From NCBI RefSeq assembly GCF_010671925.1, contig NZ_JAAHIH010000001.1, positions 869,053-933,052 of the forward strand: a stretch of DNA of 64,000 nt. Direction: 5' to 3'. A model generated the notes under the pieces. That model worked only from the letters and a program-made list of their open reading frames with translations. It was not told where the DNA came from and did not search any database. Position numbers and translations under genes: made by a program. Source of the stretch: Moorena sp. SIOASIH (GTDB taxonomy: Bacteria; Cyanobacteriota; Cyanobacteriia; Cyanobacteriales; Coleofasciculaceae). This document shows positions 1,344-59,680 of the stretch, piece after piece; position 1 is the stretch's first letter; each line of letters begins with the position of its first letter.

Positions 1344-2549
1344 ATGGAGTTAAAACTTGAAATGAACACGTTATCTAACCACCACTGTCCTGTATGTGCC
1401 TCTGCCGATTTAGATGTGTTTTTTGAGATGTTGGCGGTGCCAGTTTACTGTAATCTCCTGTGGCGATCGCGTCAAACTGCTCAAAACTGTCCCAAGGGAG
1501 ATATCAAACTAGGGTTCTGTCCTAGCTGTGGTTTTATTAGCAACCTAGCCTTTGACTCTACTAAATTGGGTTATTCCCAGGACTATGAAAACTCCTTACA
1601 CTACTCTGCCCGATTTCAGGACTATGCCCAATCCCTTGCCGCTGGATTGGTTAAGCGCCACAATCTCTACAATAAAAACATTATTGAAATTGGTTGTGGC
1701 AAAGGGGATTTTCTTATAAGCCTGTGTGAACTAGGTAATAACCGAGGAGTAGGTTTTGACCCCAGCTATGTTCCTAGGTCAGAGCATCAACAACTCCAGA
1801 CTCAAGTCAAGTTTGTTCAAGATTTCTATTCACAGGTCTACCAAGAGTATCAAGCGGATCTAATTTGTTGTCGGCACACCCTAGAGCACATTTCCAATCC
1901 CGCAGATTTGCTCAAGCCACTGCGACAGGCCATCGGTTCTCGCCTTAATACCGTTGTTTTCTTTGAAGTCCCCAACGCCTTAGATACCTTTCGCAATCTA
2001 GCGGTGTGGGACATTATCTATGAACACTGCTGCTATTTCGCCCCCTCTTCTCTAGGGCAAGCTTTTGCCAATGCTGGGTTTCAAGTTAGTGAAATCAAGG
2101 AGGCGTTTGGTGGTCAGTTCCTGTGCCTGGAAGCAAAGCCAGTCCATGGGGAAATCCCCAACACCTATGGAAAACCGGATGAAATCGAGGTATTGACTCA
2201 GGATATTGCCAGCTTTACCGCTAGGTTTCAGGAGAAGTTAGAAAGCTGGCAGCACAAACTGACAACCATCGCTCAAACTGGGAAAAAAGCTGTAGCATGG
2301 GGTGCTGGCTCAAAAGGGGTTACTTTTTTGAATCTGCTCAAGTGCCAAGATGTGATTGATTACATCGTAGATCTCAATCCCCGCAAACAGGGGAAGTACG
2401 TTGCTGGAACGGGACAGGAAATTGTTCCACCAGAATTTCTCCAGGATTACCAACCTGATCTGGTTATTGTGATGAACCCTATCTATGAAGAGGAGATTAG
2501 ACAGTTATGCAAAAATCTAGGTTTAACTCCTGAGTTAATATGTGTTTGA
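1344..2549 (+). CDS. SAM-dependent C-methyltransferase with N-terminal Zn-ribbon (TylCIII / NDP-hexose C-methyltransferase-like)
   Basis: CPVC...CPSCGF zinc-binding pairs at the N-terminus, a class I MTase glycine motif (IIEIGCGKGDF), and a C-terminal C-methyltransferase-like domain. Confidence 0.65.
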   Translation: MELKLEMNTLSNHHCPVCASADLDVFFEMLAVPVYCNLLWRSRQTAQNCPKGDIKLGFCPSCGFISNLAFDSTKLGYSQDYENSLHYSARFQDYAQSLAAGLVKRHNLYNKNIIEIGCGKGDFLISLCELGNNRGVGFDPSYVPRSEHQQLQTQVKFVQDFYSQVYQEYQADLICCRHTLEHISNPADLLKPLRQAIGSRLNTVVFFEVPNALDTFRNLAVWDIIYEHCCYFAPSSLGQAFANAGFQVSEIKEAFGGQFLCLEAKPVHGEIPNTYGKPDEIEVLTQDIASFTARFQEKLESWQHKLTTIAQTGKKAVAWGAGSKGVTFLNLLKCQDVIDYIVDLNPRKQGKYVAGTGQEIVPPEFLQDYQPDLVIVMNPIYEEEIRQLCKNLGLTPELICV

Positions 2550-2851
2550 CTGTTTTTGACCGTTAGCTTTGGTGATATCACGTCCGGTTAAATACCCATC
2601 ATCAAGAAGATTGATGGAAAGATTTTCAAATGTAAGCATTCAGCCGTCAGCTGTCAGCCGTGAGCTAAAAGCTCACGCTACTTGAGGTGCTTAAAATAAA
2701 CCTCGAATGGGAGAATTTAATAGTTCGAGCGGGAAAAGCCCATCAAAGCATATGCGCTATGCCCATAAGCTGATAGCTGATAGCTGATACGCGACACGCT
2801 GATAGCTGATACCATTAGGCTGAATGCTTACTGTCAAATGGCTCCGAGAAT

Positions 2852-3079
2852 TCAACCGCCGCCAACAATCGTGACAATTTCGAGCTGGTCTCCCTCCTGA
2901 ATTTGAGTCTGGTTCCAAAACTGCCGATGGAGAATTTCACCATTATATTCTACTGCCACCAGGCGCGGATTTAAGCCTAGCTGTTCTAATAGCTGGGGTA
3001 GTTTAGTGTCACAAGAGCAGGTACGGGATTCACCATTAACTTCAAGGGTAATTTGAGTTGTGTTGTTAGAAATCATCAA
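2852..3079 (-). CDS. thiS: sulfur carrier protein ThiS
   Basis: 75 aa with a ubiquitin-like fold pattern, ending ...VTIVGGG (C-terminal GG). Sits immediately downstream of thiE on the same strand. Confidence 0.7.
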   Translation of the reverse strand: MMISNNTTQITLEVNGESRTCSCDTKLPQLLEQLGLNPRLVAVEYNGEILHRQFWNQTQIQEGDQLEIVTIVGGG

Positions 3080-3162
3080 TGAATATTCACCACCAAGCTG
3101 TTAAAAATTAGTCACCATTACTAAATACCTAACACCTCTAACTATTATCAAGTTTTATGACA

Positions 3163-4245
3163 TTAGGGTTTAGGAACCCCAGCTTCAAGAGATCGAAGAG
3201 TGTGCTCTCGTTTAAGCTGGGACAGAAAATATTGAGTCACTAGAGTTGGTTGTTCCGCCTCCATGATTCCCCGGACAACCGCCACTCGTTGAGCTCCGGC
3301 ATCCAAGACATAGTTTAAATTGTTTGGATCAATTCCCCCAATTGCAAACCATGGAATTGTAGCATGCTCTTTAGCATACTTGACATAATCCAAACCAGCA
3401 GCTGGCTTACTCGGTTTAGTAGGGGTTTCATAGACCGGTCCAACACCAATATAATCTGCTCCTTCAGCAATTGCCCGGTGTAGTTCATCAGGGTTAGTAG
3501 TCGAGCAACCAATGATACGCTGGGAGCCGAGTAGCTGCCGTGCTAAGGAAATTGGTACATCTTGTTGTCCGATATGAACCCCATCAGCCTCCACTGCCAG
3601 AGCTAAATCTACCCGGTCATTCATAATAAACAAAGCACCGTAGTGATGGCACAGCTGGCACAGTTTCTGAGCATCAGCCAGTTTGTCCCCATCATCTGCT
3701 TGTTTTTCCCGGTACTGTACCAAAGTTAGTCCACCTTGGAGGGCAGCCTCTACTTTGGCAAACCACTGGTCTGACAAGGATGTAATCAAGTAGAGATGCG
3801 ATCGCTCTAGCAACTGATGACGCTGATATCCCAGTAAATTGCTTTCCAGGCTGTAAACCCGATAGCGCATCTGCTTAAAGGCGATACCCATCTGAGCATC
3901 GTATAGCTTACCATATTCTTCCAACACCCGTAGTGCTTCTTGCACCCGACACAAATTAGCCTGTAAAAGCTGCTGAATGCTCGAACGTCGTTCTTCCTGG
4001 GGATGAGTTAGTCCAGTCCCTGGATCACCTGAGGTATCTCGGAAGATCCTGATTTCTGAGCTGTGCCAACGGGCTAATTCCTGGCGCATTTCCTTGCACT
4101 CCCCAGCCATCTGGGCGCTGTTGAGACCAAAGCGGCACCACTCCTCAATAATTCGCAAGCCTTCTCTAGCTCGGTCTAAATTTGCATCCAAAATTCGGCA
4201 AATCGCCGATTTTTGACCCATAATGCCGCTGTGTTGGTCATCCAT
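3163..4245 (-). CDS. thiE: thiamine-phosphate synthase (long cyanobacterial form with N-terminal extension)
   Basis: C-terminal TMP-TENI domain motifs (HIGQQD, GADYIGVGPVYETPTK, AIGGI). The ~360 aa length is typical of cyanobacterial ThiE. Confidence 0.85.
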   Translation of the reverse strand: MDDQHSGIMGQKSAICRILDANLDRAREGLRIIEEWCRFGLNSAQMAGECKEMRQELARWHSSEIRIFRDTSGDPGTGLTHPQEERRSSIQQLLQANLCRVQEALRVLEEYGKLYDAQMGIAFKQMRYRVYSLESNLLGYQRHQLLERSHLYLITSLSDQWFAKVEAALQGGLTLVQYREKQADDGDKLADAQKLCQLCHHYGALFIMNDRVDLALAVEADGVHIGQQDVPISLARQLLGSQRIIGCSTTNPDELHRAIAEGADYIGVGPVYETPTKPSKPAAGLDYVKYAKEHATIPWFAIGGIDPNNLNYVLDAGAQRVAVVRGIMEAEQPTLVTQYFLSQLKREHTLRSLEAGVPKP

Positions 4246-4450: not shown

Positions 4451-6724
4451 ATGAGTTTGATCAGAATTAACACCATAGAATTAACTATTTCCAATCCCGT
4501 AGCGTGGCCCAAGGCCAATCCCGTAGCGTGGCAAAAGGCCAATCATTCCCACTGCCATCACCAACATCACCAACATCAGCCTAGACCCTTTGATCTTGGG
4601 TTACCAGTGACAACGATTTTGCTGGGATTGACCTTTAGCGTCTTCAGCCAAGCTATCCCTTCAAGAATGGTGCCACTAGGATTAGGAGGAACCACAGCTT
4701 TAGCCCAATCAACTCAGGATGATAGGGGAAGGAACCTGGATCGTACCATAGAAAGAAAATTTTTGTTTGTAAACCCAGTTACCGGAAACGACAGTAGTGG
4801 TAATGGCACCCAGGATTCACCGTTGAAAACTATCACTCAGGCGCTACAAGCTGCCCAGCCCAATACTGTGATTGTACTCTCTAGGGGTATCTACAGCAGT
4901 GACATGGGTGAAACCTTCCCCCTACTTCTGAAACCCGGTATCAAGCTACAGGGCAATCCCCGCACTAGAGGTCACGATGTGGTGATTCGCGGCGGTGGTA
5001 CCTTTGTTAGTGCCACGGCTGCTAGTCACGATGTCCTAATCGTAGGTGCTGACCAAACAATTATTTCTGGCGTAACCCTTAACAATACTAATCCAGAAGG
5101 TTATGGTTTGTGGCTGGAAGTCGGTTCGGTTTTAGTGGAAGACAATACCTTAACTGGGAATAGCAAAAGCGGGATTGCTGTGGAGGGAAATAGTACACCA
5201 ACAATTCGCAGTAACTACTTCTACAAAAATAAAGGCAATGGCCTCAGCATTTACGGAACCTCAAACACTCAAGTGGATGACAATGTATTTGAAAATAATG
5301 ACTTAGGAATTCTGATTGCCGAAAACGTTGCACCCCATATCGTTAATAATCGCATCACTGGCAATAGAAATGGGGTAGTGGTTGAAACCAATGCTCAACC
5401 ATTTTTCCAGAATAACCTCATTGAAAATTCCCAACTGGATGGATTAGTCCTCAAGGTGGGAGCTAATCCGGATTGGGGAAATTCACCAGAATCAACAAAC
5501 AATACATTAAACAATAAATTAAACAATATATTTCGAGGGAATGGGCGGTTTGATATTAACAATCAGGACTCTGAGCCTACTGTGATCGCTTTTGGTAATC
5601 AGCTAGAAGAGGAAACTAACAGTGAGGTTAATTCAGGGGAAACTGAAAACGATATCATTCAAGAGTCGGAGGTTGAAACACCAGCTGTTAGTAAACCAGC
5701 TGTTAGTAAACCAGCTGTTAGTAAACCAGCTAGTGCTCCTGATGCTTCTGACAACCAAGCCGTTGTCATGGCAGAAAACTCTAATCACTCACAGAAGACT
5801 AAGCCTAATTCTCAGGAGAATCCAACCACCCCCAGCCAAGTCGTTCCATCCCAACCACCTGCCGAGAAGGAACCTACAAAGGAACCTACATCTGCTCAGG
5901 TCTCAGCAGCTTCATTTCCCGTTCCATCGAGTTTGGAGTCTCAGCCATCTACCTCGACTGATAACATCGGCAAAGACGCAGCACTAAATAATTCTGCCAG
6001 TACTGAATCTTCTAGACCAGCAGCAAGATCCCAAACTCAGAGTCAGGAAACCTCTGAAACCCAACAGCCTTCTGATCCTAGGACTCAACGTTCACATTCT
6101 GAACCCCTGACACCCCTAACTCTGAAAGTTATTCAAAACCAGGAGCAGTCCTCTTTTGAGGAACCAACATCTCCACCCAAACCAGGAGAGGATTCTAGCA
6201 GTTTTGCTCCGGCTTCACCGTCACAGGAAGTGATTGATGCGTCAAGTGACAGCTCAAAACCAACACCGGAAGCACCCTCGACTGAGGACGTTGACGTTAT
6301 GGTGTCAATGTCTAGTCAGATCAGTACACCGGTTAATCAAAATACTAGTAATCAAAATACTAGTAATCAAAATACTAGTAATCAAAATACTAGTAATCAA
6401 AATACTAGTGCTAGCTCTAATTCAGGTAGCTCAATTCCAGTGTTTTCTACAACTACCCAATCAAACTGGCAACAAAGGGTACCTCCAGGGAATAATCCTA
6501 CTTCAGCTCTACCCAGTCGGGGTTACCGGATTTTGGTAAATGCTGAGAGTGAGCAGCAACAAGATTTAATGCGATCGCTAATTCCCGATTCTTTCCTGAC
6601 CTCCTTTGAAGGAAGAACTGTGATGCAAGCGGGATTGTTCACAACCCTGGAAAATATTGATCGGGTTCTGAAATTACTCAGTAGTTATGGTTTGAGCACC
6701 ACTATTGTGCCTCTGAATTACTGA
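4451..6724 (+). CDS. secreted right-handed parallel beta-helix (DUF1565-like) protein with Pro/Ser/Thr-rich linker and C-terminal SPOR-like domain
   Basis: Repeated NxxxGNxxxGI beta-helix units. Low-complexity linker with in-frame 15-nt repeats (PAVSK x3, NQNTS x5). C-terminal ~75 aa resembles a SPOR peptidoglycan-binding fold. The first ~30 codons overlap a CCCGTAGCGTGGCC repeat, so the start is uncertain. Confidence 0.55.
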   Translation: MSLIRINTIELTISNPVAWPKANPVAWQKANHSHCHHQHHQHQPRPFDLGLPVTTILLGLTFSVFSQAIPSRMVPLGLGGTTALAQSTQDDRGRNLDRTIERKFLFVNPVTGNDSSGNGTQDSPLKTITQALQAAQPNTVIVLSRGIYSSDMGETFPLLLKPGIKLQGNPRTRGHDVVIRGGGTFVSATAASHDVLIVGADQTIISGVTLNNTNPEGYGLWLEVGSVLVEDNTLTGNSKSGIAVEGNSTPTIRSNYFYKNKGNGLSIYGTSNTQVDDNVFENNDLGILIAENVAPHIVNNRITGNRNGVVVETNAQPFFQNNLIENSQLDGLVLKVGANPDWGNSPESTNNTLNNKLNNIFRGNGRFDINNQDSEPTVIAFGNQLEEETNSEVNSGETENDIIQESEVETPAVSKPAVSKPAVSKPASAPDASDNQAVVMAENSNHSQKTKPNSQENPTTPSQVVPSQPPAEKEPTKEPTSAQVSAASFPVPSSLESQPSTSTDNIGKDAALNNSASTESSRPAARSQTQSQETSETQQPSDPRTQRSHSEPLTPLTLKVIQNQEQSSFEEPTSPPKPGEDSSSFAPASPSQEVIDASSDSSKPTPEAPSTEDVDVMVSMSSQISTPVNQNTSNQNTSNQNTSNQNTSNQNTSASSNSGSSIPVFSTTTQSNWQQRVPPGNNPTSALPSRGYRILVNAESEQQQDLMRSLIPDSFLTSFEGRTVMQAGLFTTLENIDRVLKLLSSYGLSTTIVPLNY

Positions 6725-7204
6725 TCAGACCAAGGCACAGGGAATGGGGAAGCTTTAACAGCAAGGGTTTGAGCGACTACAAGGGCTGGCAACTGTTAAG
6801 GATTTTCTCCAAGAATGTTGCACTATCTCCAAAGATGTGTTAGACTTTAAACATAGATTCAGTTTCATTAGAGATACTTTGCGACTTACATTAAAGCCGA
6901 AAACCAAGGGTTTAAGGGTTGCGTTTTTTGTCAATAGTGGAATCAAATTTATGCGCTAAGCCGGGCATAGTCCGGGTAATGCCTTGGGAGATACCCCCTG
7001 GCTGGCAAAATCCAGCTTGCATTAGTGAGCCTTAATCTGATTTGTAGATTTTGGTAGCTAAAAAGTATCGGAACTTAACACAGTTCATTGAATTTATCTG
7101 CACTTACTCTTGCCAAATTTCTGCCATCGTCAGCACAAAACCAGGTAAAACCGATTCACCACTAACCCTGGTAGGATTGTCTAGCTGCTCAACTAATGCA
7201 CCAG

Positions 7205-7830
7205 GGCGTTGACACTCCCCGGTCTAAAGACACGGGGATTCTTTGTTCGCAGACTCGACTTGCTCAACCAGGCCGGAACCAGGAAAAGTAGAGGTCAAAT
7301 CTCCCAAAGCGTTTGGATTTAAGATCCAGGTTCCGACGTGCCCCGCCGTACCCAAGGCTTGTTTAAGGATGTTGTTCGCGTAGCGTCGGCTTCGCCGAAT
7401 CGCGGCGTTATGATCTCTATCCAATTGACATCCACACTTACAGGCGTGAGTTCTAGTTGATAGGGATTTTTTAACAACTTCGCCACAATTAGAGCAATTT
7501 TGGCTTGTATAGGCAGGATTAACTGCAATAGTTATCTTGCCAAACTTGGTGCCAAAGTGCTCCATCCATTTCCTAAATTGATACCAACCTGCATCGTTAA
7601 TAGACTTAGCAAGACAATGGTTCTTTGCCAGATTCTTGACTCTCAAATCTTGCCTTACGGCACGCTTCGCGAACGTAAGCGATCAAGTCGTTAGACCGAA
7701 CTACGCAACGCGCCAGTCTCTTGGCGTGTTCTATGCGCTTCGCGCAGGCTACGCCAACACGTTGCCTACTTATTTTGAGATGTTGTCTCCCTAATCTATT
7801 AACCGCTTTCTTGCGAATTGATGTTTTTTG
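7205..7830 (-). pseudogene. tnpB: 5'-truncated tnpB (IS200/IS605-family) remnant; intact ORF portion 7224..7646
   Basis: The 140-aa ORF is ~80% identical to the C-terminal RuvC-III/Zn-finger part of the full-length TnpB at 58403..59599. Nucleotide similarity continues out of frame to ~7830. A right-end-type hairpin sits at 7215-7243. Confidence 0.7.
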
Positions 7831-8089
7831 CCTTTTGCCTTGAACTCCAAAATGATCATCAGTTTCGACCTCAACTGCTCTCTATTTTATTCTACAACAC
7901 TCAAACTAAAATTCCTGATTTCCCTAAAATATTTTTCTCACGGCGGCTTTAGCCGCTGTGAGCCTTCATCCTCGGTCTAAAGACACGATGTTTTCGGCTT
8001 TTTGGATTTTTATAATGTTTTTTATAATGTTATTTCTATTTTAAAGGTATTCCAGAGAAGTTAGTATATTGACCATCTCTCTCTGTTAA

Positions 8090-8725
8090 TTATCTATTTA
8101 AGAAAATAAATTCCCGGAGCAATTCTAAAAGCTCTAATGAAATCTCATGACCCATATCTAATTCTCTGTACTGCACTGCTGCTCCCAAGTTGAGCAAATA
8201 ATCTCGTAAGCGGTGAGCAGCACTTAAAGGAACAACCGTATCTTGTCTACCATGCACAATTAAAATGGACGGCAACGATGAATCAACCTTTTGAGGGGTT
8301 CGATGCATATAGCCACTCAAGGAGGCTAAACCTGCCAGGGGTAAGGTTAACCCTACATCCAGAGCCATTGCCCCACCTTGAGAAAAGCCACACAAAATCG
8401 TCGAAGATAGGGGAATACCTGTAAAACCTTGGAGAGAATTGAGCCAGTAGGTCAAGCGCTCTTCGCTTTCTTCTAATCCCCGATAGTCGTCTCTTGCCAA
8501 GTCGTACCACATTCTGCCACCATTTACCTGAGGGTGACTAAAAGGAGCATCGGGAATCAAAAATTGGGTATTGGGCAAGTTTAACGATGGCACTAGAGAT
8601 GCCACAGCTTGAGCATTAGCACCCCAACCGTGTAACGCTACGACCAATCGTGCTGGTCGTTGACCGTTTGCTGGTGGAATTGAAATCGCTTCGAGAGACA
8701 GGCCTCTTACTCCTGAAGAACACAA
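8090..8725 (-). CDS. alpha/beta hydrolase, phospholipase/carboxylesterase family
   Basis: Nucleophile elbow GFSQGG, plus HGWG and HGxxD motifs typical of Abhydrolase_2 esterases. Confidence 0.75.
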   Translation of the reverse strand: MCSSGVRGLSLEAISIPPANGQRPARLVVALHGWGANAQAVASLVPSLNLPNTQFLIPDAPFSHPQVNGGRMWYDLARDDYRGLEESEERLTYWLNSLQGFTGIPLSSTILCGFSQGGAMALDVGLTLPLAGLASLSGYMHRTPQKVDSSLPSILIVHGRQDTVVPLSAAHRLRDYLLNLGAAVQYRELDMGHEISLELLELLREFIFLNR

Positions 8726-9039
8726 GTGATCAGCATTCCAGATAGATGGGCTGAACTAGCGCACATTGAAGCTCTCCCCTAGGGAGTAGGTTTGAGGACT
8801 TAATCGGGGCTGCAACGCCACATCAGCCGAATAGCTAACTTACTTTATGGCGCGCTTTTCTGGTTTCAGCCCAAGATATCTGTTAATTTGAGAATGCTAT
8901 CACCAATCCGCTACATTTGTAAAGCTGTCGTGCTTTAGGATAATGTGGCGATCGCTATCAATAGTAATGGCTCCCTCATTCTTGAACTTGGTGACCAATT
9001 ACTAAACCTCAGCAAACCTGATCAAATCGGGTTTTCCCT

Positions 9040-9292
9040 GAGTTTTCAGATTGGTCAAGCTCACCTCTGTTGGTGCGCTTTCACGCTTGTCGGGAAACCC
9101 GACCGGGGTCGCACCGCAAATGGTAAACGCTATCAAGGTCACGATACCCTGGGGTGCTCGCCAGCTCCAGGCTCTATCGCTTCTGATTAAACAGGTGATG
9201 AGTTAATTTAGTGAAGCCAGTGTCAGAAGCCTAACAAGCTTTGATAGCCGAGCGAGGCACACTTTACCCTCAACGGGAGTAAACACAAAACC
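9040..9292 (+). ncRNA. putative IscB omega-RNA scaffold (guide expected at the 5' side)
   Basis: In IscB elements the omega-RNA is encoded directly 5' of iscB. This region has nested stems (9072-9115 GGTGCGCTTTC...TCGGGaaaCCCGA...GGGTCGCACC). The 81-aa ORF 8945..9190 is probably non-coding. Confidence 0.4.
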
Positions 9293-10582
9293 ATGTGTAA
9301 TTACGTCTTTGTTTTAGATGCAAGCCATAAACCCCTCAACCCCTGCCGTCCCGTTACCGCCAGGAAGCTGTTGACGGCTGGGAAGGCGGCTGTATATCGC
9401 CGTTACCCTTTCACAATCATCTTGAAAAAGCAGGTAGACGGCTCAGCTAAACCGATGTCCCTCAAGATCGATCCTGGCTCCAAGATTACTGGTCTAGCTG
9501 TTGTGTACAGTAATCAGGTGGTGTGGTCTGCTGAAATCGAACATCGTGGCTCCAAAATCAAATCAGCTCTCGACTATCGTCGAGGGGTTCGCCGTTCCCG
9601 TAGAAAGAGGAAATGCCGTTACCGAAAGCCACGTTTCAACAACCGGAAACGCCCAGAAGGTTGGTTGGCTCCGAGCCTACAACACAGAGTGGCAACCACT
9701 ATGACCTGGGTGCTGAGATTGATGAAACTCACCGCCATTGGTTCGATATCCCAGGAGCTAGTCCGCTTTGATACCCAAAAGCTCCAAAATCCGGAAATAT
9801 CTGGCATAGAGTATCAACAGGGGGAGCTGATGGGCTATGAAGTGCGGGAGTACTTGTATCAGAAATGGGGTCGCCAATGTGTCTACTGTGGGGCGAAGTC
9901 TGTCAAGCTAGAGGTGGAACACATAATCCCAAAATCCAAGGGGGGAACGAATCGTGTCAATAACCTCACCCTAGCCTGCCATCGGTGTAATCAGGCCAAA
10001 GGAAATCTTGATGCTCGGGATTTTTTATCGGGGAAACCCCATGTCCTAAAGCGGATTTTAGGTAGAGCAAAGCAACCACTATTAGATGCGGCGGCGGTCA
10101 ACTCCACCCGTTGGCAACTTTACCTTTGCTTGAAAGAAACTGGATTGTCCGTAGCAGTAGGAACTGGTGCCAGAACCAAGTACAACCGTATCAAGCTGGG
10201 ATTACCCAAGGGTCATTGGGTGGATGCCGCCTGTGTCGGGGAAGTGGCCACATTGAAGATTGTAACCAGACAGCCTCTTTTAATCAAAGCGATGGGTCAC
10301 GGTTGTCGTCAGGTAATACAGATGGACAAATACGGCTTTCCTCGCAAAGGGTACAAACCCAAGCATCCTGTGAAGGGATGGAAAACCGGGGATATCGTTA
10401 ATGTGGTAGCTGGGAAGAATGCTGGATTAAAAGGGGTTCGCATCAAGACCGTCAGAGCCAAAGGAAATTTTGATCTAATCGGGGCTGATCACGGTGTCTC
10501 CAAGAAGGTCAACAGCGCATCTCGCAACTACATTCAATGTGTCCATCGTCAGGATGGGTATTATTATAGTTTTGCTAAATGA
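9293..10582 (+). CDS. iscB: IscB, OMEGA RNA-guided nuclease (Cas9 ancestor; RuvC split by HNH)
   Basis: PLMP-like N-terminus (KPLNPC), RuvC-I IDPGSKITGLAV, Arg-rich bridge helix RRGVRRSRRKRKCRYRKPR, HNH CVYCG...EVEHIIPKSKGG...NLTLACHRCNQAKGN, RuvC-III GHWVDAACVG, and a C-terminal TI-like domain. 429 aa. Confidence 0.85.
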   Translation: MCNYVFVLDASHKPLNPCRPVTARKLLTAGKAAVYRRYPFTIILKKQVDGSAKPMSLKIDPGSKITGLAVVYSNQVVWSAEIEHRGSKIKSALDYRRGVRRSRRKRKCRYRKPRFNNRKRPEGWLAPSLQHRVATTMTWVLRLMKLTAIGSISQELVRFDTQKLQNPEISGIEYQQGELMGYEVREYLYQKWGRQCVYCGAKSVKLEVEHIIPKSKGGTNRVNNLTLACHRCNQAKGNLDARDFLSGKPHVLKRILGRAKQPLLDAAAVNSTRWQLYLCLKETGLSVAVGTGARTKYNRIKLGLPKGHWVDAACVGEVATLKIVTRQPLLIKAMGHGCRQVIQMDKYGFPRKGYKPKHPVKGWKTGDIVNVVAGKNAGLKGVRIKTVRAKGNFDLIGADHGVSKKVNSASRNYIQCVHRQDGYYYSFAK

Positions 10583-10741
10583 TAAGTAACTTTGATGAGC
10601 TTTTTTGTAGGAGGAGCAAGATCGATGTTACCTCTGAGTCATTGTCCTTAACCTGCCTACCACTAAATTGCCCCTTAATTACTTTAATAAGTATGTCAGT
10701 ATGACGTAGAAGTATGAGCTATGAATGATCAAGGATGAAGT

Positions 10742-11800
10742 ATGAAGATCGATGTCACAGATGAGTCATTGTCCCTATCTCCCCTACCGCTAAAACGCCC
10801 TTTATTAATGGTTGGTCACGGCACTAGAGACCCCGATGGGCGTCAGACTTTCCTTGATTTTGCCCAGACCTATCAAACCTTGAACCATTCTCGACCAGTA
10901 GTACCTTGTTTTTTAGAACTGACTGGTCCAACTATTCAACAGGGAGTAGAGAGTTGTGTCCAGCAGGGTTATACAGAACTCACTGTATTACCGATTTTAC
11001 TGTTTGCAGCTCGCCACAATAAATTTGATGTTACTAACGAGTTAGACCGGGCCAGGGCAAAATATCCCCAAGTCAAGTTTCACTACGGGCGTCATTTTGG
11101 AATTACTACGGGAATTCTGGATTTATGGCGGCAACGGCTTGCCAAACTTGACCAACCCCAAGCAGAGTTACCCGTTAGCCAATTGAAGGGTCAAGCTTCC
11201 AATCTAGAACCTTCCACAAAACAACCTTTACCCTTAAGAAAAGACACAGTACTTCTATTTGTTGGTCGTGGGTCGAGTGACCCTGATGCTAATGGTGATG
11301 TCTACAAAATGGCTCGCATGCTCTGGGAAGGCAGTGGCTATAAAACTGTGGAAACCTGCTTTATTGGCATTACCCATCCTCGGTTAGAAGAAGGGTTCCG
11401 TCGCGCCCGACTCTACCAACCTAAGCATATTATAGTACTTCCTTACTTCCTATTTACCGGGGCTTTAGTAAAAAAGATTTTTGAGATCACAGCTCAGCAG
11501 CAGAAACTTTATCCAGAGGTTCCCTTGACCTGTTTACCAGAAATGGGGATTCAACCTCAGCTGCTATCTGTGCTCAGGGACCGAGAAATCGAGGCTCAGT
11601 TAGGGCAAGTGCAGATGAATTGTGAGATGTGTAAGTTCCGGCTAGCAGCGATTGATAATGGTGCTGACAACGGACACTCCCACCACCATCACCACGGGCA
11701 TGACCATCACCACCACCACTCTCACCAGCATAATCACAATACCCCAGATCCCTATCAAGATTTGGAAAAATACCACCAGCGTATTTGGCAAGCACCCTAG
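10742..11800 (+). CDS. cbiX: sirohydrochlorin cobaltochelatase, long form CbiXL with His-rich tail and MxCxxC Fe-S motif
   Basis: Duplicated CbiX chelatase halves ([10 protein letters not shown] / [10 protein letters not shown]), MNCEMCKF, and a C-terminal [17 protein letters not shown] tail. Confidence 0.8.
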
Positions 11801-11805
11801 GGTTG

Positions 11806-12250
11806 GCCCCTTGAAGGTTAACAGGTTGAAGGTTAACAGGTTGGCCGGTTGAAGGTTGGCCGGTTGAAGGTTGGCCGGTTGAAGGTTGGAGGTTAACAGG
11901 TTGAAGGTTAACAGGTTGAAGGTTAATCCAGACAACTTCCAACCTATACTACAAGGGACGCCTGGGCAAGAACAACATTCAACCAAATAACATTCAACCA
12001 AACAACCTTCAACCTCCAACCCCATAACCTTCAACCTTCAACCCCATAACCTTCAACCTTCAACCCCATAACCTTCAACCTTCAACCCCATAACCTTCAA
12101 CCCCATAACCTTCAACCTTCAACCCCATAACCTTCAACCCCATAACCTTCAACCTTCAACCCCATAACCTTCAACCTTCAACCCCATAACCTTCAACCTT
12201 CAACCCCATAACCTTCAACCCCATAACCTTCAACCCCATAACCTTTTTTG
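11806..12250. repeat. STRR-like heptamer arrays arranged as inverted arms (GGTTGAAGGTTAACA... vs CCATAACCTTCAACC...)
   Basis: Tandem units read directly from the sequence. The downstream array is the reverse complement of the upstream array. Confidence 0.9.
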
Positions 12251-15460: not shown

Positions 15461-17305
15461 ATGAATACTGAGGAAATTCAGTCACAATATTCCCTTGGGG
15501 AAAGAGATTTTAGTGGAGCTGACTTAAGTCAAGTCAACCTCAGCCAGGTAAACCTGGAACGGGTAATTTTATGGCGAGCCGACCTCAGTCAGGCAATTCT
15601 TACTGGGACTAATCTCAGTAGCGCTGATCTCTGGGGAGCTAATTTGAGAGAAGCCAACTTAAGTCAAGCTGTTTTATGTGGTGCTAATCTGGGTGAGGCA
15701 GACTTGAGCGATGCTATTCTACACTTAACTAACCTCCATACTACACTATACAATTTTTCCACTAAGTTTCCCCCAAATTTCGACCCTACCAAGGCAGGAG
15801 CTTATTTAATTGCCCCCGAAGCTTTACTAACGGAAGCTAACTTGAGTGGGGTAGATCTCAGTCAGACCAATTTAAAGGGTGCGAATTTGACCAGAGCTGA
15901 CCTCTGGAAAACTAACCTCAAAGGCGCTGATCTCAAACAAGCTAATCTAACCCGTGCTTGCTTAATTGGGGCTGACTTGCAGGATGTTGACCTAACAGGA
16001 GCTAATTTGAACCGGTCCAATCTGATGGGGGCAAACCTGAAGGGTGCTAAGCTTCTAAATGCAACCCTGAGCGCTATACTCTACGACGAAACCACTCAGT
16101 TTCCTGAAGATTTTGATCCAGTTAAAACAGGAGGACATTTAATTGCTCCTGGTGTATCTCTACCAAGGGCTAACCTGAGTCAGTCAAACCTCAGTGGCGT
16201 GGATTTAAGTGAAGCAGACTTATCCCAAGTTGACCTAAGTCAGGGTCACTTTTTCGGTATATCTTTGCTCAGAGCTAATTTAAGGAAAGCCAATTTAAGA
16301 GGAGTTCAATTCTGGGAAGCGGATCTACGAGAAGCCGATCTACAGGAAGCGGATTTGCGGGGAGCGGACTTATGGTTGAGCCTAGTTAGTGGCGCGGATT
16401 TCAGGGGAGCAGATTTAAGGAGAGTTCACTTGTTTGGAGTAGATCTATCCGCCACTAATCTCGAAGGGGTTAACCTCAAAGGAGCAATTTATAACCAAGA
16501 GACTAAATTTCCTGAAGATTTTGACCCCACAGCCCATGGCGCATATCTAATTGCTCCGGATGTGTCTCTGTGTGGGCTAAATCTTCAGGGGGCTGACCTC
16601 AGAGGAGCTGACTTGAGTAGGGCAGATTTGAGGAAAGTTAGCCTGTTCGGGGCAGATCTTTTCTCGGTTAACCTTGAAGGAGTGAATTTGCTCGGAGCGC
16701 TCTACGACGAAGCCACTCGATTTCCAGAAGGGTTTGACCCCAGCCAACACGGAGCGTACTTAATTGCCCCCGGTGTATCATTTTCAGATCAAGAGTTCAG
16801 TGGGACTGATCTGGGGGGAGCTAACTTTAGTAAGGTGAATTTGCTTGGTGCAGATCTGCGCAGTGCTAATCTTGAGGATGCTAAATTTGAGCGATCGCTT
16901 TATAACCAAACTACTCAATTTCCGGAAGGGTTTGATCCTAGGAAGTTGGGAGCATATTGCATTGTCCCTCTTGCTTCCCTGTCAGGGCGAGATTTGAGTG
17001 GAGCCAACTTAGGAGGAGTAGACCTGAGTCAAGCTGACCTACGTGGGGCTAATCTGAGTCAAGTTGACCTTTGGGGGGCAAACCTCAGTCAGGCAAACTT
17101 GGCAGGGGCTAATTTGACAGGTGCTTATCTGTTAGGGGTAAATTTAATTGGTGCTGACTTAACCAAGGCAACCCTAAGTGGTGCTAATCTCCATGGGGCA
17201 GAACTTAAGGATACTAAACTGACTGGGGTAGACCTGAGTAATGTTGATTTGAGCAATACCTTTATGAGAGGGGCAATTATGCCTGATGGCACGCTTCACA
17301 ACTAA
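15461..17305 (+). CDS. pentapeptide-repeat protein with interspersed TQFPEDFDP...GAYLIAP modules
   Basis: Dozens of A(D/N)LxxANLxx pentapeptide units. Four to five repeats of a ~35-aa spacer module. Confidence 0.85.
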
Positions 17306-17512
17306 GCTGTTAGAAGGCAAAAGGCAAAAGGCAAAAGGCAAAAGGCAGAAGGCAAAAGGCAGAAGGCAAAAGGCAAAAGGCAAAAGGCAGAAGGCAGAAG
17401 GCAAAAGGCAAAAGGCAAAAGGCAAAAGGCAAAAGGCAAAAGGCAAAAGGCAGAAGGCAGAAGGCAAAAGGCAGAAGGCAAAAGGCAAAAGGCAAAATGC
17501 CAAAGTAGTTTA
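17290..17512. repeat. (AAGGCARA)n octamer tandem array, ~27 units
   Basis: Direct reading. Both frames give artefactual KAKGKRQ / AFCLLP ORFs. Confidence 0.95.
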
Positions 17513-18223
17513 GATGGGAAAACTCTGAACGAAGGTTGTCTGAAAGTCAGCGTTATAGGTGGCTTGGTGGAGATTTATCAGTACAACTATGTTCTGTCTA
17601 TTGGGGGATAAGCGAATTTCTCTGATCGAATATTTCCTGATAGCTTCACGGTAATTGTTTAGTTTACCTAGGGTGAGTTGGCGATAATTGTAATTAATCA
17701 CTAGCTGCATTGATGCCCGGTCTATATTAGACATTCCTCCAGATAAAACCGAGGGAATATAAATTTGTTCTAAACGAATCTCTAGTGGGTCTTTTTCTTT
17801 ATCCACCAATACCTTAACTGTTTCAGTGCCATTGGGTTGAATGGAACGCTCGATAATTGGCAGTTTTAGTCCTACTTTTAGTTGATTGAGTCCTAAGCTC
17901 CGTCTTATTCTTTGGGTTTTCCTGAGTAAGCTATCTTCAGCCTCTTTAGGAGTGAGATTGGAATCCGAGTAGTTATAGTTAGTTTCTAGACAACCCTTCT
18001 TGACACAAGCGTTAGTGGCTACATCGACAATTTGGATTTTGGCGGTAGGAACCTTTGTGACATGGTTTCTAGCACTTTCCAGATAAATATAGCTGCGGCT
18101 ATCTAGGGAAAAACCTGACAATCGACGATTGGTTTTGACAATAAGTGCTAATCCCTCCTCCCCAAGGAATAGTAGAAAGAAGCTAGCAACCAACAAACTT
18201 GAATATAAATAAAAGCGTTTCAT
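17510..18223 (-). CDS. hypothetical secreted protein (signal peptide)
   Basis: N-terminal hydrophobic leader [16 protein letters not shown]. No identifiable domain. Confidence 0.45.
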
Positions 18224-18324: not shown

Positions 18325-18741
18325 TCAAATTACTTTAAAATCAGAGATAGTCTCAATCCACACCCTTGCTCCACATTTGAGGGGATCATCGGGGCGATAC
18401 ATGACTCTACATGGTCCATTGACTTCCACGGTATGACCGTAAATATTCTGAGCACCCCGTTTTACGGTAATCACAGGGTTGCGCTCCCCGGTCTTGAGAT
18501 TGTTGCGAATTACCCTCTGGTTAACGTGAATCACAGCTTTAGTGTACTCTCTGCGCTTTGACCAATTCCGCTTGGGACCGCGAGTGCCAGGAGTGACTAC
18601 TGGCATGCCATCAAACAGAGGAATCACCCAAGTTCTACCCACTTTATAGGCTCCTTTAACTCTGCCTTTGCTCAGAAGGTAACGGACGCGAGTGGCGGAA
18701 ACACCTAGTAAATCAGCGGCTTGTGCGGTAGAAATCATCAT
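18325..18741 (-). CDS. helix-turn-helix (MerR/excisionase-like HTH_17) protein with uncharacterised C-terminal domain
   Basis: AADLLGVSATRVRYLLSKGRVKGAYKVGRTWVIP is a classic HTH_17. The basic C-terminal ~80 aa has no recognisable family. Confidence 0.55.
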   Translation of the reverse strand: MMISTAQAADLLGVSATRVRYLLSKGRVKGAYKVGRTWVIPLFDGMPVVTPGTRGPKRNWSKRREYTKAVIHVNQRVIRNNLKTGERNPVITVKRGAQNIYGHTVEVNGPCRVMYRPDDPLKCGARVWIETISDFKVI

Positions 18742-23139: not shown

Positions 23140-23645
23140 TGATAATTGATTATGAGCTAGCATTTGTAAGCTGTCAGCCGTCAGCTGTCAGCTGTCAGCT
23201 TTATTAATTCCTGACAGCAGACCTAACAGAGATTAAACGAATGCTTACCTGTTTTATTCAAAAGCTCGCACCTAAAGTAGCGTGCCACAGGCCCAAAGCT
23301 GATAGCTGAATGCTTACTATAATTTATAAATAGCTGTAAGTATTCAGCCGTCAGCTATCAGCCGTCAGCTTATTTTATTCAAAAGCTGTTCGGTGTAGCG
23401 TGCGCTATGGGCAGAAAATGTTCCCGTAGCGTGGCCACAGACCTTTGGCTGAGAGCTGATAGCTGAGAGCTGATAGCTGAGAGCTGATAGCTGAGAGCTG
23501 ATAGCTGAATGCTTACAAATAGCTCATGAACAATATTGCTGATTTCTGATAACATCAAAATATTTATTACTGTTACCTGCTCCCTGTTCCCTGTTACCTG
23601 CTCCCTGTTCCCTGCTCCCTACTCACTACTCCCTACTCCCTACTC
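23140..23645. repeat. cluster of MITE-like elements and heptamer arrays (GTCAGCY, AGCTGAKAGCTGA; TIR GTAAGYATTCAGC)
   Basis: Direct reading. Internal segment TTATTTTATTCAAAAGCTGTTCGGTGTAGCGTGCGC is shared with copies at 24760 and (inverted) 41060. Confidence 0.8.
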
Positions 23646-24702: not shown

Positions 24703-24890
24703 GTAAGCATTCAGCGGTCAGCCGTCAGCCGTCAGCTTTCTGTGGTCAGCCGTCAGCTTATTTTATTCAAAAACTGTTCCCCTAGCGTGGCCAAGAGCTT
24801 ACCGTGGCCATAGGCCAAGGCCAAGCGTGTGCGTAGCGCATAACCTGAGAGCTAAGAGCTGATAGCTGAATGCTGATAGCTGAATGCTTA
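24703..24890. mobile_element. MITE-like element with terminal inverted repeats GTAAGCATTCAGC...GCTGAATGCTTAC
   Basis: TIRs read directly. Internal GTCAGCC heptamers and a conserved TTATTTTATTCAAAAACTGTTCCCCTAGCGTGGCC block. Confidence 0.7.
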
Positions 24891-25019
24891 CAAGATACTA
24901 TTGAAAAAAGCGAAAGGCTTATATAATAATAATTCTGCTCAGAGCTGATAGTTAAGGGCTGATCGCCCGTCCGCTGAGGGCTGACAGTAGAATCTATTGC
25001 GAAAATCCTTGACTACTAC

Positions 25020-51439: not shown

Positions 51440-52870
51440 ACTACCCCGGCCTACTTCGTTGTTCGCGAAGCGTGGCCTACGGCCAGGCCGGGGCTTCCAG
51501 CTTCACGGAAGAACGCCTTAGCTTAGACGGGCGTCCTCGCTTTGGTCTTACTTCTTCGACCCTGGCGTTGACCTCCCCCGTCCCAGAGGAGGATAGCATT
51601 CTGATCCCTTCTGCCCTAATATTCTTGGCCGCATTACCGTCTCTATCGTGGTGAGTTCCGCAACTTGGACAAACCCAAGTCCTTACATCTAGCGGCAACT
51701 CCTTGATACGGTAATGACAACTAGAGCAGGTCTTAGAGCTGGGGAACCACCGGTTTATTTCTACTAAAACTTTCCCTTCTTTTTCGCATTTATAGGAAAG
51801 GAAGTTTACAAAGGTTCCCCAGCCTAGATCAGAAATTGCTTTAGCTAGTTTGTGGTTACGAACCATGCCCTTGACGTTTAGGTTTTCGACTACCACTACC
51901 TGATTCTGGTCTACAATTTTTCTAGATAGTTTGTGCAGGTAGTCTTGGCGGACATTTCCAATACGTTCATATACCTTAGCTACAATCTTACGAGCCTTTT
52001 TGCGTCCACTGCTGCCCTTCTTCTTTCGGGCTGCAATGCGTTGTTTTTTGGCTAGTTTTTTCTCGGATCTATCTATAGGCTTGGGATTGCCAAATTTAGA
52101 GGTCTTTTCGCCGTCATAGGTAATAGCAAAATCCTTGATACCCAAATCAATCCCTATCACCTTTCCCTTCGTTGATGGCTTTACACTATCGGATTCGTAT
52201 TCCATCAAAACAGAAGCGTAATATTTGCCAGAAGGTGCTTTGCTGACTGTTACAGTTTTTATTTCCCCATCTAGTGGTTGATGAATTACAGCCTTGACAA
52301 CTCCTAATTTTCCAGGGAACTTTAGGCAATCACCCACCTGTTTAACATTTTGGGGATACTGAATTGATTGGCGATGATGATACGATTTAAATTTGGGATA
52401 TTTAGCTCTACCTTGGCCTATTGGCCACGCTACGCGAACAAAAAAGTTTTGATATGCACGACTAAGGTTTAGACTCACAGATTGCCAGACCTGGGAGTAA
52501 CAATCCTTTAGCCATTCAGTCTCCTTTTCTTTCTTGAGTTTTGGAAGCATAGAGTTGAGTGCAGATTGTTTCAAGCCTTTGCCAGTTTCCTTGTAAGTTT
52601 CTATGCACTGATTCAAGGCATAGTTCCACCACCAGCGAGCACATCCAAAGTGCTGGGCTAGTATCATTACTTGTTCTTGTGTGGGATAGATTCTGACTTT
52701 GACGGCTTTATGTTTCACTGCACTCAACCTTTTTATCGACCTGGATTACTATTATATAAGTTTTGTATTAAGACGTCAAGGTATAAAGTCAATTTTCTGG
52801 CTCGCTATCCATCCCCAACCTACTTGGCCGTAGGCCACGCTACGCGAACGTAGAGGTTGGGGAATTCCGC
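51440..52870. mobile_element. tnpB-only IS200/IS605-family element (IS1341-like)
   Basis: Terminal hairpins: RE 51445-51492 CCCCGGCCT...AGGCCGGGG and LE 52815-52862 CCAACCTAC...GTAGAGGTTGG. Both ends carry the inverted motif CGCGAAGCGTGGCCTACGGCC. Confidence 0.7.
51477..52727 (-). CDS. tnpB: TnpB (OMEGA RNA-guided RuvC-like nuclease, OrfB_IS605 family)
   Basis: N-terminal VRIYPTQEQ...ARWWWNYAL, RuvC triad (IGIDLGIKDF, ENLNVKGM, DRDGNAAKNI), and Zn ribbon CSSC...CPSCG. Confidence 0.85.
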   Translation of the reverse strand: MSAVKHKAVKVRIYPTQEQVMILAQHFGCARWWWNYALNQCIETYKETGKGLKQSALNSMLPKLKKEKETEWLKDCYSQVWQSVSLNLSRAYQNFFVRVAWPIGQGRAKYPKFKSYHHRQSIQYPQNVKQVGDCLKFPGKLGVVKAVIHQPLDGEIKTVTVSKAPSGKYYASVLMEYESDSVKPSTKGKVIGIDLGIKDFAITYDGEKTSKFGNPKPIDRSEKKLAKKQRIAARKKKGSSGRKKARKIVAKVYERIGNVRQDYLHKLSRKIVDQNQVVVVENLNVKGMVRNHKLAKAISDLGWGTFVNFLSYKCEKEGKVLVEINRWFPSSKTCSSCHYRIKELPLDVRTWVCPSCGTHHDRDGNAAKNIRAEGIRMLSSSGTGEVNARVEEVRPKRGRPSKLRRSSVKLEAPAWP

Positions 52871-58329: not shown

Positions 58330-58520
58330 TTTTGCTTATTCCCACCCTCGGGATTTTTGACACTCCCCGTCCTAGAAGAACGGGGATTCTTTAATCAACG
58401 AGTCAGCGTGGCTCTTCCAGACCGGAATCAGGAAGAGTAGAGGCTGATTCTCCTAAAGCGTTCGGATCTATGATCCAGGTTCCGGTATGCCCTACCGTAC
58501 CCAAGGCTCTTTTTAGAATA
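58330..58520 (-). ncRNA. putative TnpB omega-RNA (reRNA) overlapping the tnpB 3' end and RE hairpin
   Basis: By analogy to characterised TnpB systems. The conserved 3'-end hairpin is shared by all three copies. Confidence 0.3.
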
Positions 58521-59680
58521 TTAATGGCTGCATTATGGTCGCGATCCAACACACACCCACACGAGCAAGTATGCGTTCTGGTTGATAGCGATTTTTTGAC
58601 AACTTCACCACATTTTGAACAGTTCTGACTAGTATAAGCAGGGTTAACGGCTATTGTTTGCCTGCCAAACTTTTGTCCAAAATATTCCAGCCATTTTCTA
58701 AATTGATACCAACCTGCATCATTAATAGACTTGGCAAGACAATGATTTTTTACCAAATTTTTTACCCTCAAGTCTTCGTAAGCGACCACGTCGTTAGAGT
58801 GGATTACGCAGCGCGCCAGTCTCTTGGCGTGCTCTTCACGCTGCCTACTTATCTTAAGGTGTGTTCTACCTAGTCTATTAATGGCTTTTTTGCGATTGAC
58901 TGAGCCTTTCTTTTTGCGAAAAACCCGACGTTGATAAAACTTAAGCAGTTTCTCACCCTTACGATAAAACCTTGGATTTGTCTCTACACCTCCCTTGGAG
59001 TCGGTATAAAACTCCTTAAGTCCAACGTCTAAACCAACGTTGGTGTGCGAAGGCTCTAAAGGTTTGCTAATATCAACTTTGATACAAAACTGAACATAAT
59101 AGCCATCCGCTCGGCGCACTAATCTAACTCGTTTTATCAGCGTCTGATCGTAACGCCATAACTCCCAGGTTCCTTTTAGTTTTAGTTTCCCAATACCTTT
59201 TTTGTCTAAAAAATTTATTGATTTAGTATCGGGGGATAGTTTCCAGCCAGATGTTTTATACTCAACTGACCTAGAAAACTTCTTAAACTTAGGATATCCC
59301 TTTTTACCAGGGACTTGTTTTTTACATTTATCGTAAAATCTAGAAATTGAGTTGTAAGCTCTTTCAACTGAAGCTTGACAGGCATGAGAATTTAAGGCTT
59401 TAACAAAGGGATACTCAGACCTGAGCCACGTATTATGACGATACAAGTCTTTTTGTCCTATACCTTTATTGTCCATCCAGTAACGGATGCACTTGTTCCG
59501 AACAAACTGACCGGTGCGAATCGCCTCATCAATCGCAGCATATTGAGTTTTATTCCCTTTGACCTTAAATTCTAAGACTATCATTTTGACGTGGAACAAC
59601 TCTACGTAATATTATAGCACGAAAAAAATAAAGCCGTCCTTCTAGGACGGGGCTTGAGGCCCAAATTTTTGGTCAACCAC
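58354..59680. mobile_element. tnpB-only IS200/IS605-family element, full length
   Basis: RE hairpin 58362-58389 (CTCCCCGTCCTAGAAGAACGGGGATTC) and LE hairpin 59632-59652 (GCCGTCCTTCTAGGACGGGGC). Same ends as the mini element at 24163-24696 and the truncated copy at 7205. Confidence 0.7.
58403..59599 (-). CDS. tnpB: TnpB (RuvC-like RNA-guided nuclease)
   Basis: RuvC triad VGLDVGLKEF / EDLRVKNL / DRDHNAAINI, and Zn finger CSKCG...CSCGC. Confidence 0.85.
   Translation of the reverse strand: MFHVKMIVLEFKVKGNKTQYAAIDEAIRTGQFVRNKCIRYWMDNKGIGQKDLYRHNTWLRSEYPFVKALNSHACQASVERAYNSISRFYDKCKKQVPGKKGYPKFKKFSRSVEYKTSGWKLSPDTKSINFLDKKGIGKLKLKGTWELWRYDQTLIKRVRLVRRADGYYVQFCIKVDISKPLEPSHTNVGLDVGLKEFYTDSKGGVETNPRFYRKGEKLLKFYQRRVFRKKKGSVNRKKAINRLGRTHLKISRQREEHAKRLARCVIHSNDVVAYEDLRVKNLVKNHCLAKSINDAGWYQFRKWLEYFGQKFGRQTIAVNPAYTSQNCSKCGEVVKKSLSTRTHTCSCGCVLDRDHNAAINILKRALGTVGHTGTWIIDPNALGESASTLPDSGLEEPR

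Follow-up and report, generated by a model that had tools for sequence, protein, structure and literature searches.

Positions 8993-10610 of a 64,000-nt stretch from the cyanobacterium Moorena sp. SIOASIH (contig NZ_JAAHIH010000001.1; this whole stretch is called the window, and positions are counted from its first letter) very probably hold a complete, intact and non-autonomous IscB (OMEGA) element of the IS200/IS605 type. Cas9 descends from systems of this class, in which IscB and its omega-RNA form a compact programmable nuclease. The element consists of an iscB open reading frame (ORF), the structured omega-RNA encoded upstream of it and two conserved ends, and it lies directly next to a GAG of the host DNA without a target duplication. 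An initial annotation, made from the letters of the window alone, had pointed to this locus.

The 429-aa protein belongs to the IscB family, as it scored 458 bits against the NCBIfam equivalog 'RNA-guided endonuclease IscB' (guided_IscB, cut-off 175 bits). The initial annotation described an intact IscB with the motifs IDPGS, EVEHII and HWVDAA, an Arg-rich stretch and a RuvC domain split by HNH, and all of these were found. Pfam RRXRR covers residues 5-177 (246 bits, model positions 1-174 of 174 matched) and Pfam HNH covers residues 196-238 (E 9e-14). The RuvC catalytic residues are D60 of RuvC-I in IDPGS, E155 of RuvC-II in QELVRF and H308/D311 of RuvC-III in HWVDAA. The HNH domain is located between RuvC-II and RuvC-III and contains H210 in EVEHII, N224/N233 and a Cys4 zinc site (C196/C199/C229/C232), and an Arg-rich bridge helix spans residues ~96-120, with RRSRRKRK at residues 100-107. 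All catalytic and zinc residues are present and are invariant when aligned with 35 homologues, and none of the RuvC and HNH catalytic residues is substituted. The RuvC motifs align residue by residue with those of TbaIscB (9k30_A) and of the IscB 11hx_A, and the N-terminal motif PLNP (residues 14-17) aligns with PLMP of TbaIscB. In a phmmer search of the PDB sequences, TbaIscB and OgeuIscB were matched at E 1e-38 to 1e-31 and the IscBs as a whole at E 1e-38 to 1e-27, followed by IsrB and small Cas9d. The AlphaFold model, which was built on the homologue alignment, has a mean predicted local distance difference test score (pLDDT) of 78.5, and a Foldseek comparison with the PDB ranked OgeuIscB-omegaRNA-DNA complexes first (8csz_D, E 1.2e-23). 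Residues 317-429 are predicted to be beta-rich (pLDDT 55-91), and their length and sequence are conserved across homologues with a coverage of 99-100%.

A scan with one genome per species returned 37 related loci (labelled L). The closest relatives are the copies of Moorena sp. SS36440bin_2 (L001, 98% amino acid identity), M. producens 3L (L002, 93%) and Moorena sp. SIO3I8 (L003, 91%), followed by those of Paraprochloron and Prochloron (L004, L025 and L005, 72-80%). L001 is syntenic with the window, and the flanks of L002 and L003 are unrelated to it. One iscB copy per genome was found in the sampled Moorena, so the rarity of such loci in any single genome, as stated in the initial annotation, holds for these genomes but not in general, since several other genomes carry 3-4 copies or more. 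The ratios of nonsynonymous to synonymous substitution rates (dN/dS, Nei-Gojobori method) of iscB are 0.21, 0.27 and 0.11 against L002, L003 and L004, respectively, and 0.31, based on few substitutions, against the syntenic L001. The ORF is under purifying selection.

The region upstream of the ORF contains the only Rfam match in the window, to HEARO (RF02033) at positions 9089-9267 of the plus strand (E 8e-18, model positions 1-211 of 211). The name HEARO stands for what is now termed the IscB omega-RNA (Meers et al., bioRxiv 10.1101/2023.03.14.532601; PMC9755519), and the HEARO nucleases are active RNA-guided enzymes (PMC9755519). The score of 88.4 bits exceeds the gathering score of 83 bits by a small margin, and the 5' part of the alignment is displaced by a 52-nt insertion in the RNA of the window. 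In copies without this insertion the HEARO match begins at the conservation boundary (position 2754 in L002, 2752 in L003 and 2756 in L005), and therefore we place the start of the scaffold at 8993 and take the variable sequence on its 5' side as the guide. In agreement with the earlier placement of the guide on this side, the sequences 5' of 8993 are unrelated between non-syntenic copies, and conservation sets in from 8993 on.

The structure of this RNA is conserved as well. In an RNAalifold alignment of nine copies, which is small and includes close relatives, 31 pairs were predicted, and compensatory changes were observed for 25 of them, including those of the first stem (8994-8999/9050-9055). 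The upstream RNA has a minimum free energy (MFE) z-score of -4.7. Hence a structured upstream RNA, as anticipated in the initial annotation, is present by both the Rfam match and the compensatory changes. The first stem GACCAAU/AUUGGUC and the multiloop-enclosing helix GCUC (9059-9062)/GAGC are the same in the MFE folds of the window and of L002, as are all downstream helices. A pseudoknot, for which the Rfam brackets '[[[[[ ]]]]]' could be taken, was ruled out by the MFE folds, in which these pairs form an ordinary nested helix around the multiloop. Without the inserted 52 nt, the scaffold shares 95.6% identity with that of L002 and 86% with that of L004, while the synonymous divergence (dS) of the ORF is 0.17 and ~1.5, respectively. 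The scaffold is thus more conserved than synonymous sites, which indicates constraint on the RNA. Conserved sequence with a terminal hairpin continues beyond the end of the model at 9267 up to the start codon. The 81-aa ORF at 8945-9190 was rightly doubted before; it has no Pfam match and is spurious, since it straddles the host flank and the RNA.

The ends of the element were determined from the conservation limits and from an empty site. In seven copies at four or more genomic sites, conservation begins abruptly at 8993 (GACCAATTACTAA) and stops at ...TTTTTTGT(A/T)G before a GAG. The copy shared by M. producens 3L and JHB (L002 and L051) sits between a nucleoside hydrolase gene and gnd, a place at which M. 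producens PAL (L053) and M. bouillonii (L052) have no element. With a slash at each junction, the empty allele of these two reads ...AAAACTGGCG/GAGATTTTTATG and retains GAGAT, and the occupied allele of 3L and JHB reads ...AAAACTGGCG/GACCAAT...TTTTTTGTAG/GAGATTTTTATG (at the junctions, ...CTGGCG/GAGATTTTTATG versus ...CTGGCG/GACCAAT...TTGTAG/GAGATTTTTATG). The comparison reveals a clean insertion without target duplication, whose ends correspond to window positions 8993-10610 within a possible shift of the boundary by up to 2 nt (GA), and it also identifies the trailing GAG as host DNA. The span of 8900-10582 proposed initially is thus exact for the end of the ORF, but the RNA and the element start at 8993, neither at 8900 nor at 9089, and the mobile unit ends at 10610, 28 nt beyond the stop codon.

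The pentamers that follow the element are GAGGA in the window, L001, L004 and L025, GAGAT in L002/L051 and GAGCA in L003 and L005. They suggest that the target is flanked on its 3' side by a target-adjacent motif (TAM) of approximately 5'-GAGNA-3', which fits seven of the eight observed sites, the eighth being GAGAT. Meers et al. (bioRxiv 10.1101/2023.03.14.532601) described the right end (RE) of the transposon as the boundary of the HEARO region that precedes iscB and the TnpA target motif adjoining the left end (LE) as the TAM, and they reported a nearby tnpA for only ~1.5% of iscB genes. Following these rules, the layout in the iscB orientation is the guide, the RE with the scaffold, iscB, the LE and the TAM. 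In the conventional orientation of the transposase, the element is on the minus strand with the RE at 8993 and the LE at 10610, and the putative TAM reads 5'-TNCTC, followed by the LE. As regards subterminal hairpins of the kind recognised by TnpA, the RE side is highly structured, with a DNA fold of -18.8 kcal/mol that is also the first stem of the RNA, and the fold of the LE side is weak (-4.8 kcal/mol), with a CCATC/GATGG hairpin ~65 nt inside.

The site occupied in the window was identified from other Moorena loci (L039-L042 and L046-L047), in which a Crp-family helix-turn-helix (HTH) gene lies between an esterase gene and cbiX and no IscB is present. Window 8008-8994 corresponds to 2274-3256 of the M. 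producens 3L locus L042, and window 10611-12097 corresponds to L042 3874-5394. The crp ORF of L042 (3162-3791, minus strand) matches Pfam HTH_Crp_2 and Crp, and by this alignment the element replaces ~617 bp, comprising the N-terminal three quarters of the crp-like gene and its promoter. The predicted guide, for which a length of 16 nt was assumed by analogy with OgeuIscB, comes from the remnant of this gene. It matches the intact crp alleles at 16/16 positions in L046, whose left site reads CATTCTTGAACTTGGT/GAGCAG, and at 15/16 positions in M. producens 3L, and the TAM-like GAGCA follows the match. The right junction in the window is at another GAGGA.

These features suggest how the element may work. 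Transcription from the host flank would yield an omega-RNA whose 5' end at ~8977-8992 serves as the guide and whose part from 8993 to ~9292 forms the HEARO scaffold bound by IscB. The 429-aa IscB with this RNA would recognise guide-matching DNA with the TAM GAGNA on its 3' side and cut both strands of it, by HNH and RuvC. Precise excision by a trans-acting Y1 TnpA would leave the donor joint CATTCTTGAACTTGGT/GAGGA, which combines the guide match with the TAM, so that the element would carry what the 'cut-and-copy' retention of Meers et al. (bioRxiv 10.1101/2023.03.14.532601) requires. The unoccupied allele would also be a target of IscB, as the guide matches the intact crp alleles of other Moorena strains.

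Several observations weigh against a complete and active element. One of them is the 52-nt insertion in the omega-RNA, which is found in the window and the syntenic L001 only, has no counterpart in other relatives and is lacking in L002, L003, L005 and the JHB copy L051. In the MFE folds it extends a small hairpin (ACC-AAAU-GGU in L002) into a long stem-loop of its own. The window and L001 differ within it by two substitutions, neither of them compensatory and one of them breaking a predicted pair, and the insertion therefore looks unconstrained. If it wrecked the scaffold, the window copy, like L001, would be a decaying relic with an intact ORF, and decay does occur in this clade, as the iscB ORF of the Prochloron copy L005 has an internal stop. 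The insertion also alters the Rfam alignment, in which the enclosing helix is no longer modelled. However, it lies in an apical loop, and the ACC/GGU stem and all other helices are retained in the predicted fold. L004 and L025 carry a different insertion of ~20 nt at the equivalent place, which marks this position as variable. The remaining scaffold is 95.6-97% identical to those of relatives, and the ORF appears constrained even against L001. A disabled system is thus considered unlikely. The inserted sequence further contains a GTCGGG-AAA-CCCGAC hairpin, present once in the window, that resembles the first HEARO stem, and because of this mimicry the cmscan alignment begins at 9089 in the window and L001. 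Taken literally, that alignment, which spans the full model and scores 88.4 bits compared to 87.1 bits for the full alignment of L002, would define a shorter RNA with a scaffold at 9089-9267, the first stem GTCGGGAAACCCGAC and a guide at 9073-9088, and reduce 8993-9088 to the dead relic of a former 5' end. Cleavage would then be directed by GTGCGCTTTCACGCTT, with the 5' end of the RNA near 9070-9089. Yet the alignment from 9089 flags the multiloop-enclosing helix as non-canonical, whereas an RNA starting at 8993 forms GCUC/GAGC as well as GACCAAU/AUUGGUC, both supported by covariation. Positions 8993-9064 are still 93-95% identical to the other copies, and the alternative guide lies within the element and is the same in L001, so that it is unable to mark a flank. 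We regard the shorter RNA as highly improbable. A scan of metagenomes for the hairpin gave two exact matches in unrelated contexts and no extended similarity, which lends no support to a dispersed mini-element.

The remaining points concern the protein, expression and mobility. When the C-terminal 115 aa alone were compared with the PDB sequences, only weak KOW/L24-like matches at E >= 0.1 were obtained. The TAM-interacting domain listed in the initial annotation is accordingly predicted from conservation and the structural match of the whole model only, although the C-terminal region itself is present and conserved. A consensus scan for sigma-70 promoters gave five sites, versus 2.5 expected in shuffled sequences, and the site at 8917-8944 could, tentatively, start transcription of the omega-RNA. 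No Y1 tnpA was detected in the 64-kb window by tblastn with Moorena Y1 TnpA, which makes the element non-autonomous, like most of those with iscB. M. bouillonii encodes a Y1 TnpA, and its two IS200/IS605-type elements (one with tnpA and tnpB, the other with tnpB only) were considered as the source of TnpA and rejected, since their ends bear no resemblance to those of the IscB element. The locus is syntenic in three Moorena genomes (the window, L001 and L038), and the window copy may therefore lack recent movement. This shared position, the single copy detected per Moorena genome, the purifying selection and the missing tnpA would also be expected of an immobile IscB that was domesticated for a host role, for example the regulation of cbiX or of the function of the lost crp gene, rather than of a selfish element. 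The element is located just upstream of cbiX and is co-oriented with it, and the copy of 3L and JHB ends 7 nt ahead of the start codon of gnd. On the other hand, 91-94% identical copies reside at other sites in M. producens 3L/JHB and SIO3I8, and together with the clean empty site in sister genomes they indicate that the element has moved within the genus. Both ends and the TAM-like flank are kept at every copy, and the element retains intact catalytic residues in both nuclease domains, which typical repurposed guide-RNA regulators do not. Domestication is hence quite improbable, and an intact mobile IscB element remains the favored explanation of the locus.

The loss of host DNA in the window has a parallel in Moorena sp. 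SIO3I8. The flanks of that copy (L003) map to the minus strand of the window at 18871-18548 and 18375-18321, and the intact 138-aa HTH ORF at 18325..18741 (minus strand) of the window is the unoccupied allele of the L003 site (18376-18547). L003 lacks ~168 bp of this HTH gene, from GAGTA to GAGCA, at the TAM-side end of the element. Thus, at two of the three resolvable insertions the host DNA between the TAM of the insertion and another, downstream GAGNA is gone, the junction falls exactly at the end of the element, and a valid TAM is regenerated. GAGNA occurs in the window at ~4.4 per kb per strand, so both endpoints of a random deletion would rarely fall on it. Two TnpB elements of M. bouillonii in the same crp gene are simple insertions. 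Based on two cases, it is conceivable, if rather doubtful, that the IscB element repeatedly deletes host DNA next to its LE, on the TAM side, over the stretch between the TAM of the insertion and another TAM-like site. Such a loss could reflect a 'two-TAM' reaction catalysed by the transposase, in the form of replacement integration or of a deletion after insertion. One-step replacement integration, later TnpA-type cleavage at a second TAM and ordinary deletion with survivorship bias are all compatible with the data. A scan of metagenomes for an unoccupied site with the crp deletion (CTCATTCTTGAACTTG-N2-14-GCAAGATCGATG) gave no matches, leaving the order 'deletion first, insertion later' unsupported. 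In a limited literature search, no description of TAM-side adjacent deletions by IS608/TnpA was found for IS200/IS605 elements. If the pattern is real, these elements would be site-specific deleters of host genes that always retain a guide/TAM pair for IscB-driven homing, and its general occurrence would add a new outcome to the transposition chemistry of the IS200/IS605 family.

Table 1. Features of the IscB locus in the Moorena sp. SIOASIH window.
Feature	Positions	Strand	Description
Whole IscB element	8993..10610	+	1618 bp, IS200/IS605-type, non-autonomous; from conservation ends and empty site
Crp-family HTH regulator remnant	8900..8994	-	Last ~31 codons; rest of gene and promoter replaced
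Sigma-70-like promoter match	8917..8944	+	TTGTAA-16-GATAAT; ~40 nt upstream of scaffold; from consensus scan
Predicted guide	8977..8992	+	CATTCTTGAACTTGGT, 16 nt; host flank (crp-like remnant), directly 5' of scaffold
Omega-RNA (HEARO) scaffold	8993..9292	+	~300 nt, up to iscB start codon; from Rfam, covariation, fold and conservation
52-nt lineage-specific insertion	9065..9116	+	Apical loop of small variable omega-RNA hairpin (stem ACC/GGU)
iscB ORF	9293..10582	+	429 aa; from family profiles, motifs, dN/dS and predicted structure
iscB-distal end (conventional LE)	10583..10610	+	Kept in 7/7 copies; 27/28 bases identical to L002
Putative TAM	10611..10615	+	GAGGA, host DNA; GAG after element at 7/7 loci

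The crp-like gene upstream of cbiX was also broken independently in other Moorena lineages (L043, L048/L049 and L050), and it looks like a recurrent insertion target. In M. bouillonii PNG (L043), an IS605 element with TnpB and Y1 TnpA (61-1905) and a second TnpB element (2234-3718) lie in this gene, and in a M. producens assembly (L050) a 766-bp segment (2579-3344) stands in place of 208 bp of it. A right breakpoint of M. bouillonii near 10612 was considered as a shared insertion sequence junction and rejected, since it belongs to an unrelated ~35-bp indel polymorphism upstream of cbiX. This indel, which is polymorphic between Moorena lineages, adjoins a direct repeat: positions 10618-10681, the 64 bp past the TAM, repeat 10745-10805, the first ~60 bp of the cbiX coding sequence, with ~80% identity in all Moorena loci examined.

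Other OMEGA-type sequences were found in the window and its relatives. The segment 6786-8007 (~1.2-1.3 kb) is lacking in the syntenic Moorena loci L001 and L040-L042, and a 139-bp piece of it (7070-7208) matches L039. It contains a C-terminal TnpB fragment at ~7308-7836 of the minus strand (Pfam Cas12f1-like TNB, E 4.5e-19; 78% identity to a M. bouillonii TnpB) and represents another, decayed OMEGA-type element at a distance of 1.2 kb from that of IscB. Two full-length TnpB-like ORFs are encoded on the minus strand at 51477..52727 (416 aa) and 58403..59599 (398 aa), the latter with 91% identity to the TnpB encoded within the interrupted crp-like gene of M. bouillonii. The nucleoside hydrolase gene of M. 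producens 3L is split by a 392-aa TnpB element (L002 580-1758, minus strand) and is intact in JHB, PAL and M. bouillonii. The Prochloron locus L005 has a second HEARO RNA at 5846-6074 (minus strand) with a much better score of 141.6 bits, ~1.5 kb downstream of the first IscB copy and on the opposite strand.

The window also contains intergenic tandem repeat arrays at 11811-11925 and 17174-17513. The copy number of the former varies between Moorena genomes, as seen from many offset BLAST matches to L038, and the latter has repetitive ORFs on both strands (AFCLLPF / KGKRQKA). A dispersed repeat of ~43 nt occurs at 23474-23517, 24850-24892, 28042-28133, 40978-41020 and 62424-62466 and also in L003 at 5197-5240, with 87-100% identity and on both strands.

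Compared with the characterized systems, the Moorena IscB has the same domain order as OgeuIscB (PDB 7UTN, 7XHT and 8CSZ), TbaIscB (9K30) and GstIscB (Meers et al.), and it shares the RuvC catalytic D/E/H/D and the HNH His with OgeuIscB and other characterized IscBs. From the N-terminus, this order is the PLMP-like motif, RuvC-I, the Arg-rich bridge helix, RuvC-II, HNH, RuvC-III and a C-terminal domain. An RNA encoded upstream with a guide at its 5' end and the IS200/IS605 family are common to these and to the Moorena element. The differences lie in details. The identity to OgeuIscB is ~20% in the structural alignment, the protein is shorter (429 aa versus 496 aa), and it has PLNP in place of the PLMP of characterized IscBs. 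The putative TAM GAGNA differs from NWRRNA, which is reported for OgeuIscB (PMC12660989). The C-terminal domain has only a weak KOW-like similarity (E 0.1) at the level of PDB sequences, and the omega-RNA differs from those of characterized IscBs by the 52-nt loop insertion.

The RNA matches HEARO RF02033 over the full length of the model with a score above the gathering threshold, and an HNH/RRXRR ORF follows directly in the same orientation. The helices are shared and supported by covariation, and the 5' edge of the RNA is the end of the element. Relative to RF02033, the first hairpin region of the Moorena RNA is long, and a small internal hairpin has a 3-bp stem in the Moorena clade and is enlarged by 52 nt in the window copy. 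The RNA extends past the end of the model, and Meers et al. likewise noted that RF02033 does not include downstream elements (bioRxiv 10.1101/2023.03.14.532601).

A protein search gave at least 8000 homologues at E <= 1e-20. Many of them are cyanobacterial proteins of 423-429 aa with ~60% identity that are already named 'RNA-guided endonuclease IscB', the Moorena cluster included. The annotated cyanobacterial IscBs of the Moorena cluster P0135, Okeania, Limnospira/Arthrospira and Xenococcaceae have the same length of 423-429 aa, and the identity is 91-98% to the Moorena copies and 59-66% to the Okeania and Limnospira IscBs. The exact protein sequence of the window is not on record. The crp-locus insertion site together with the RNA insertion is common only to the window and Moorena sp. 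SS36440bin_2; Moorena SIO3G5 shares the crp-locus site on a contig that does not cover the RNA region. Hence the element is an ordinary IscB of a well-known, large and structurally solved kind that is already annotated in Moorena. As an intact copy with defined ends, a predicted native guide and a candidate TAM of GAGNA, it is directly testable and adds a 429-aa cyanobacterial orthologue. Only the RNA loop insertion, a natural 52-nt expansion that bears on which scaffold positions tolerate insertions, and the TAM-to-TAM loss of host DNA go beyond the routine.

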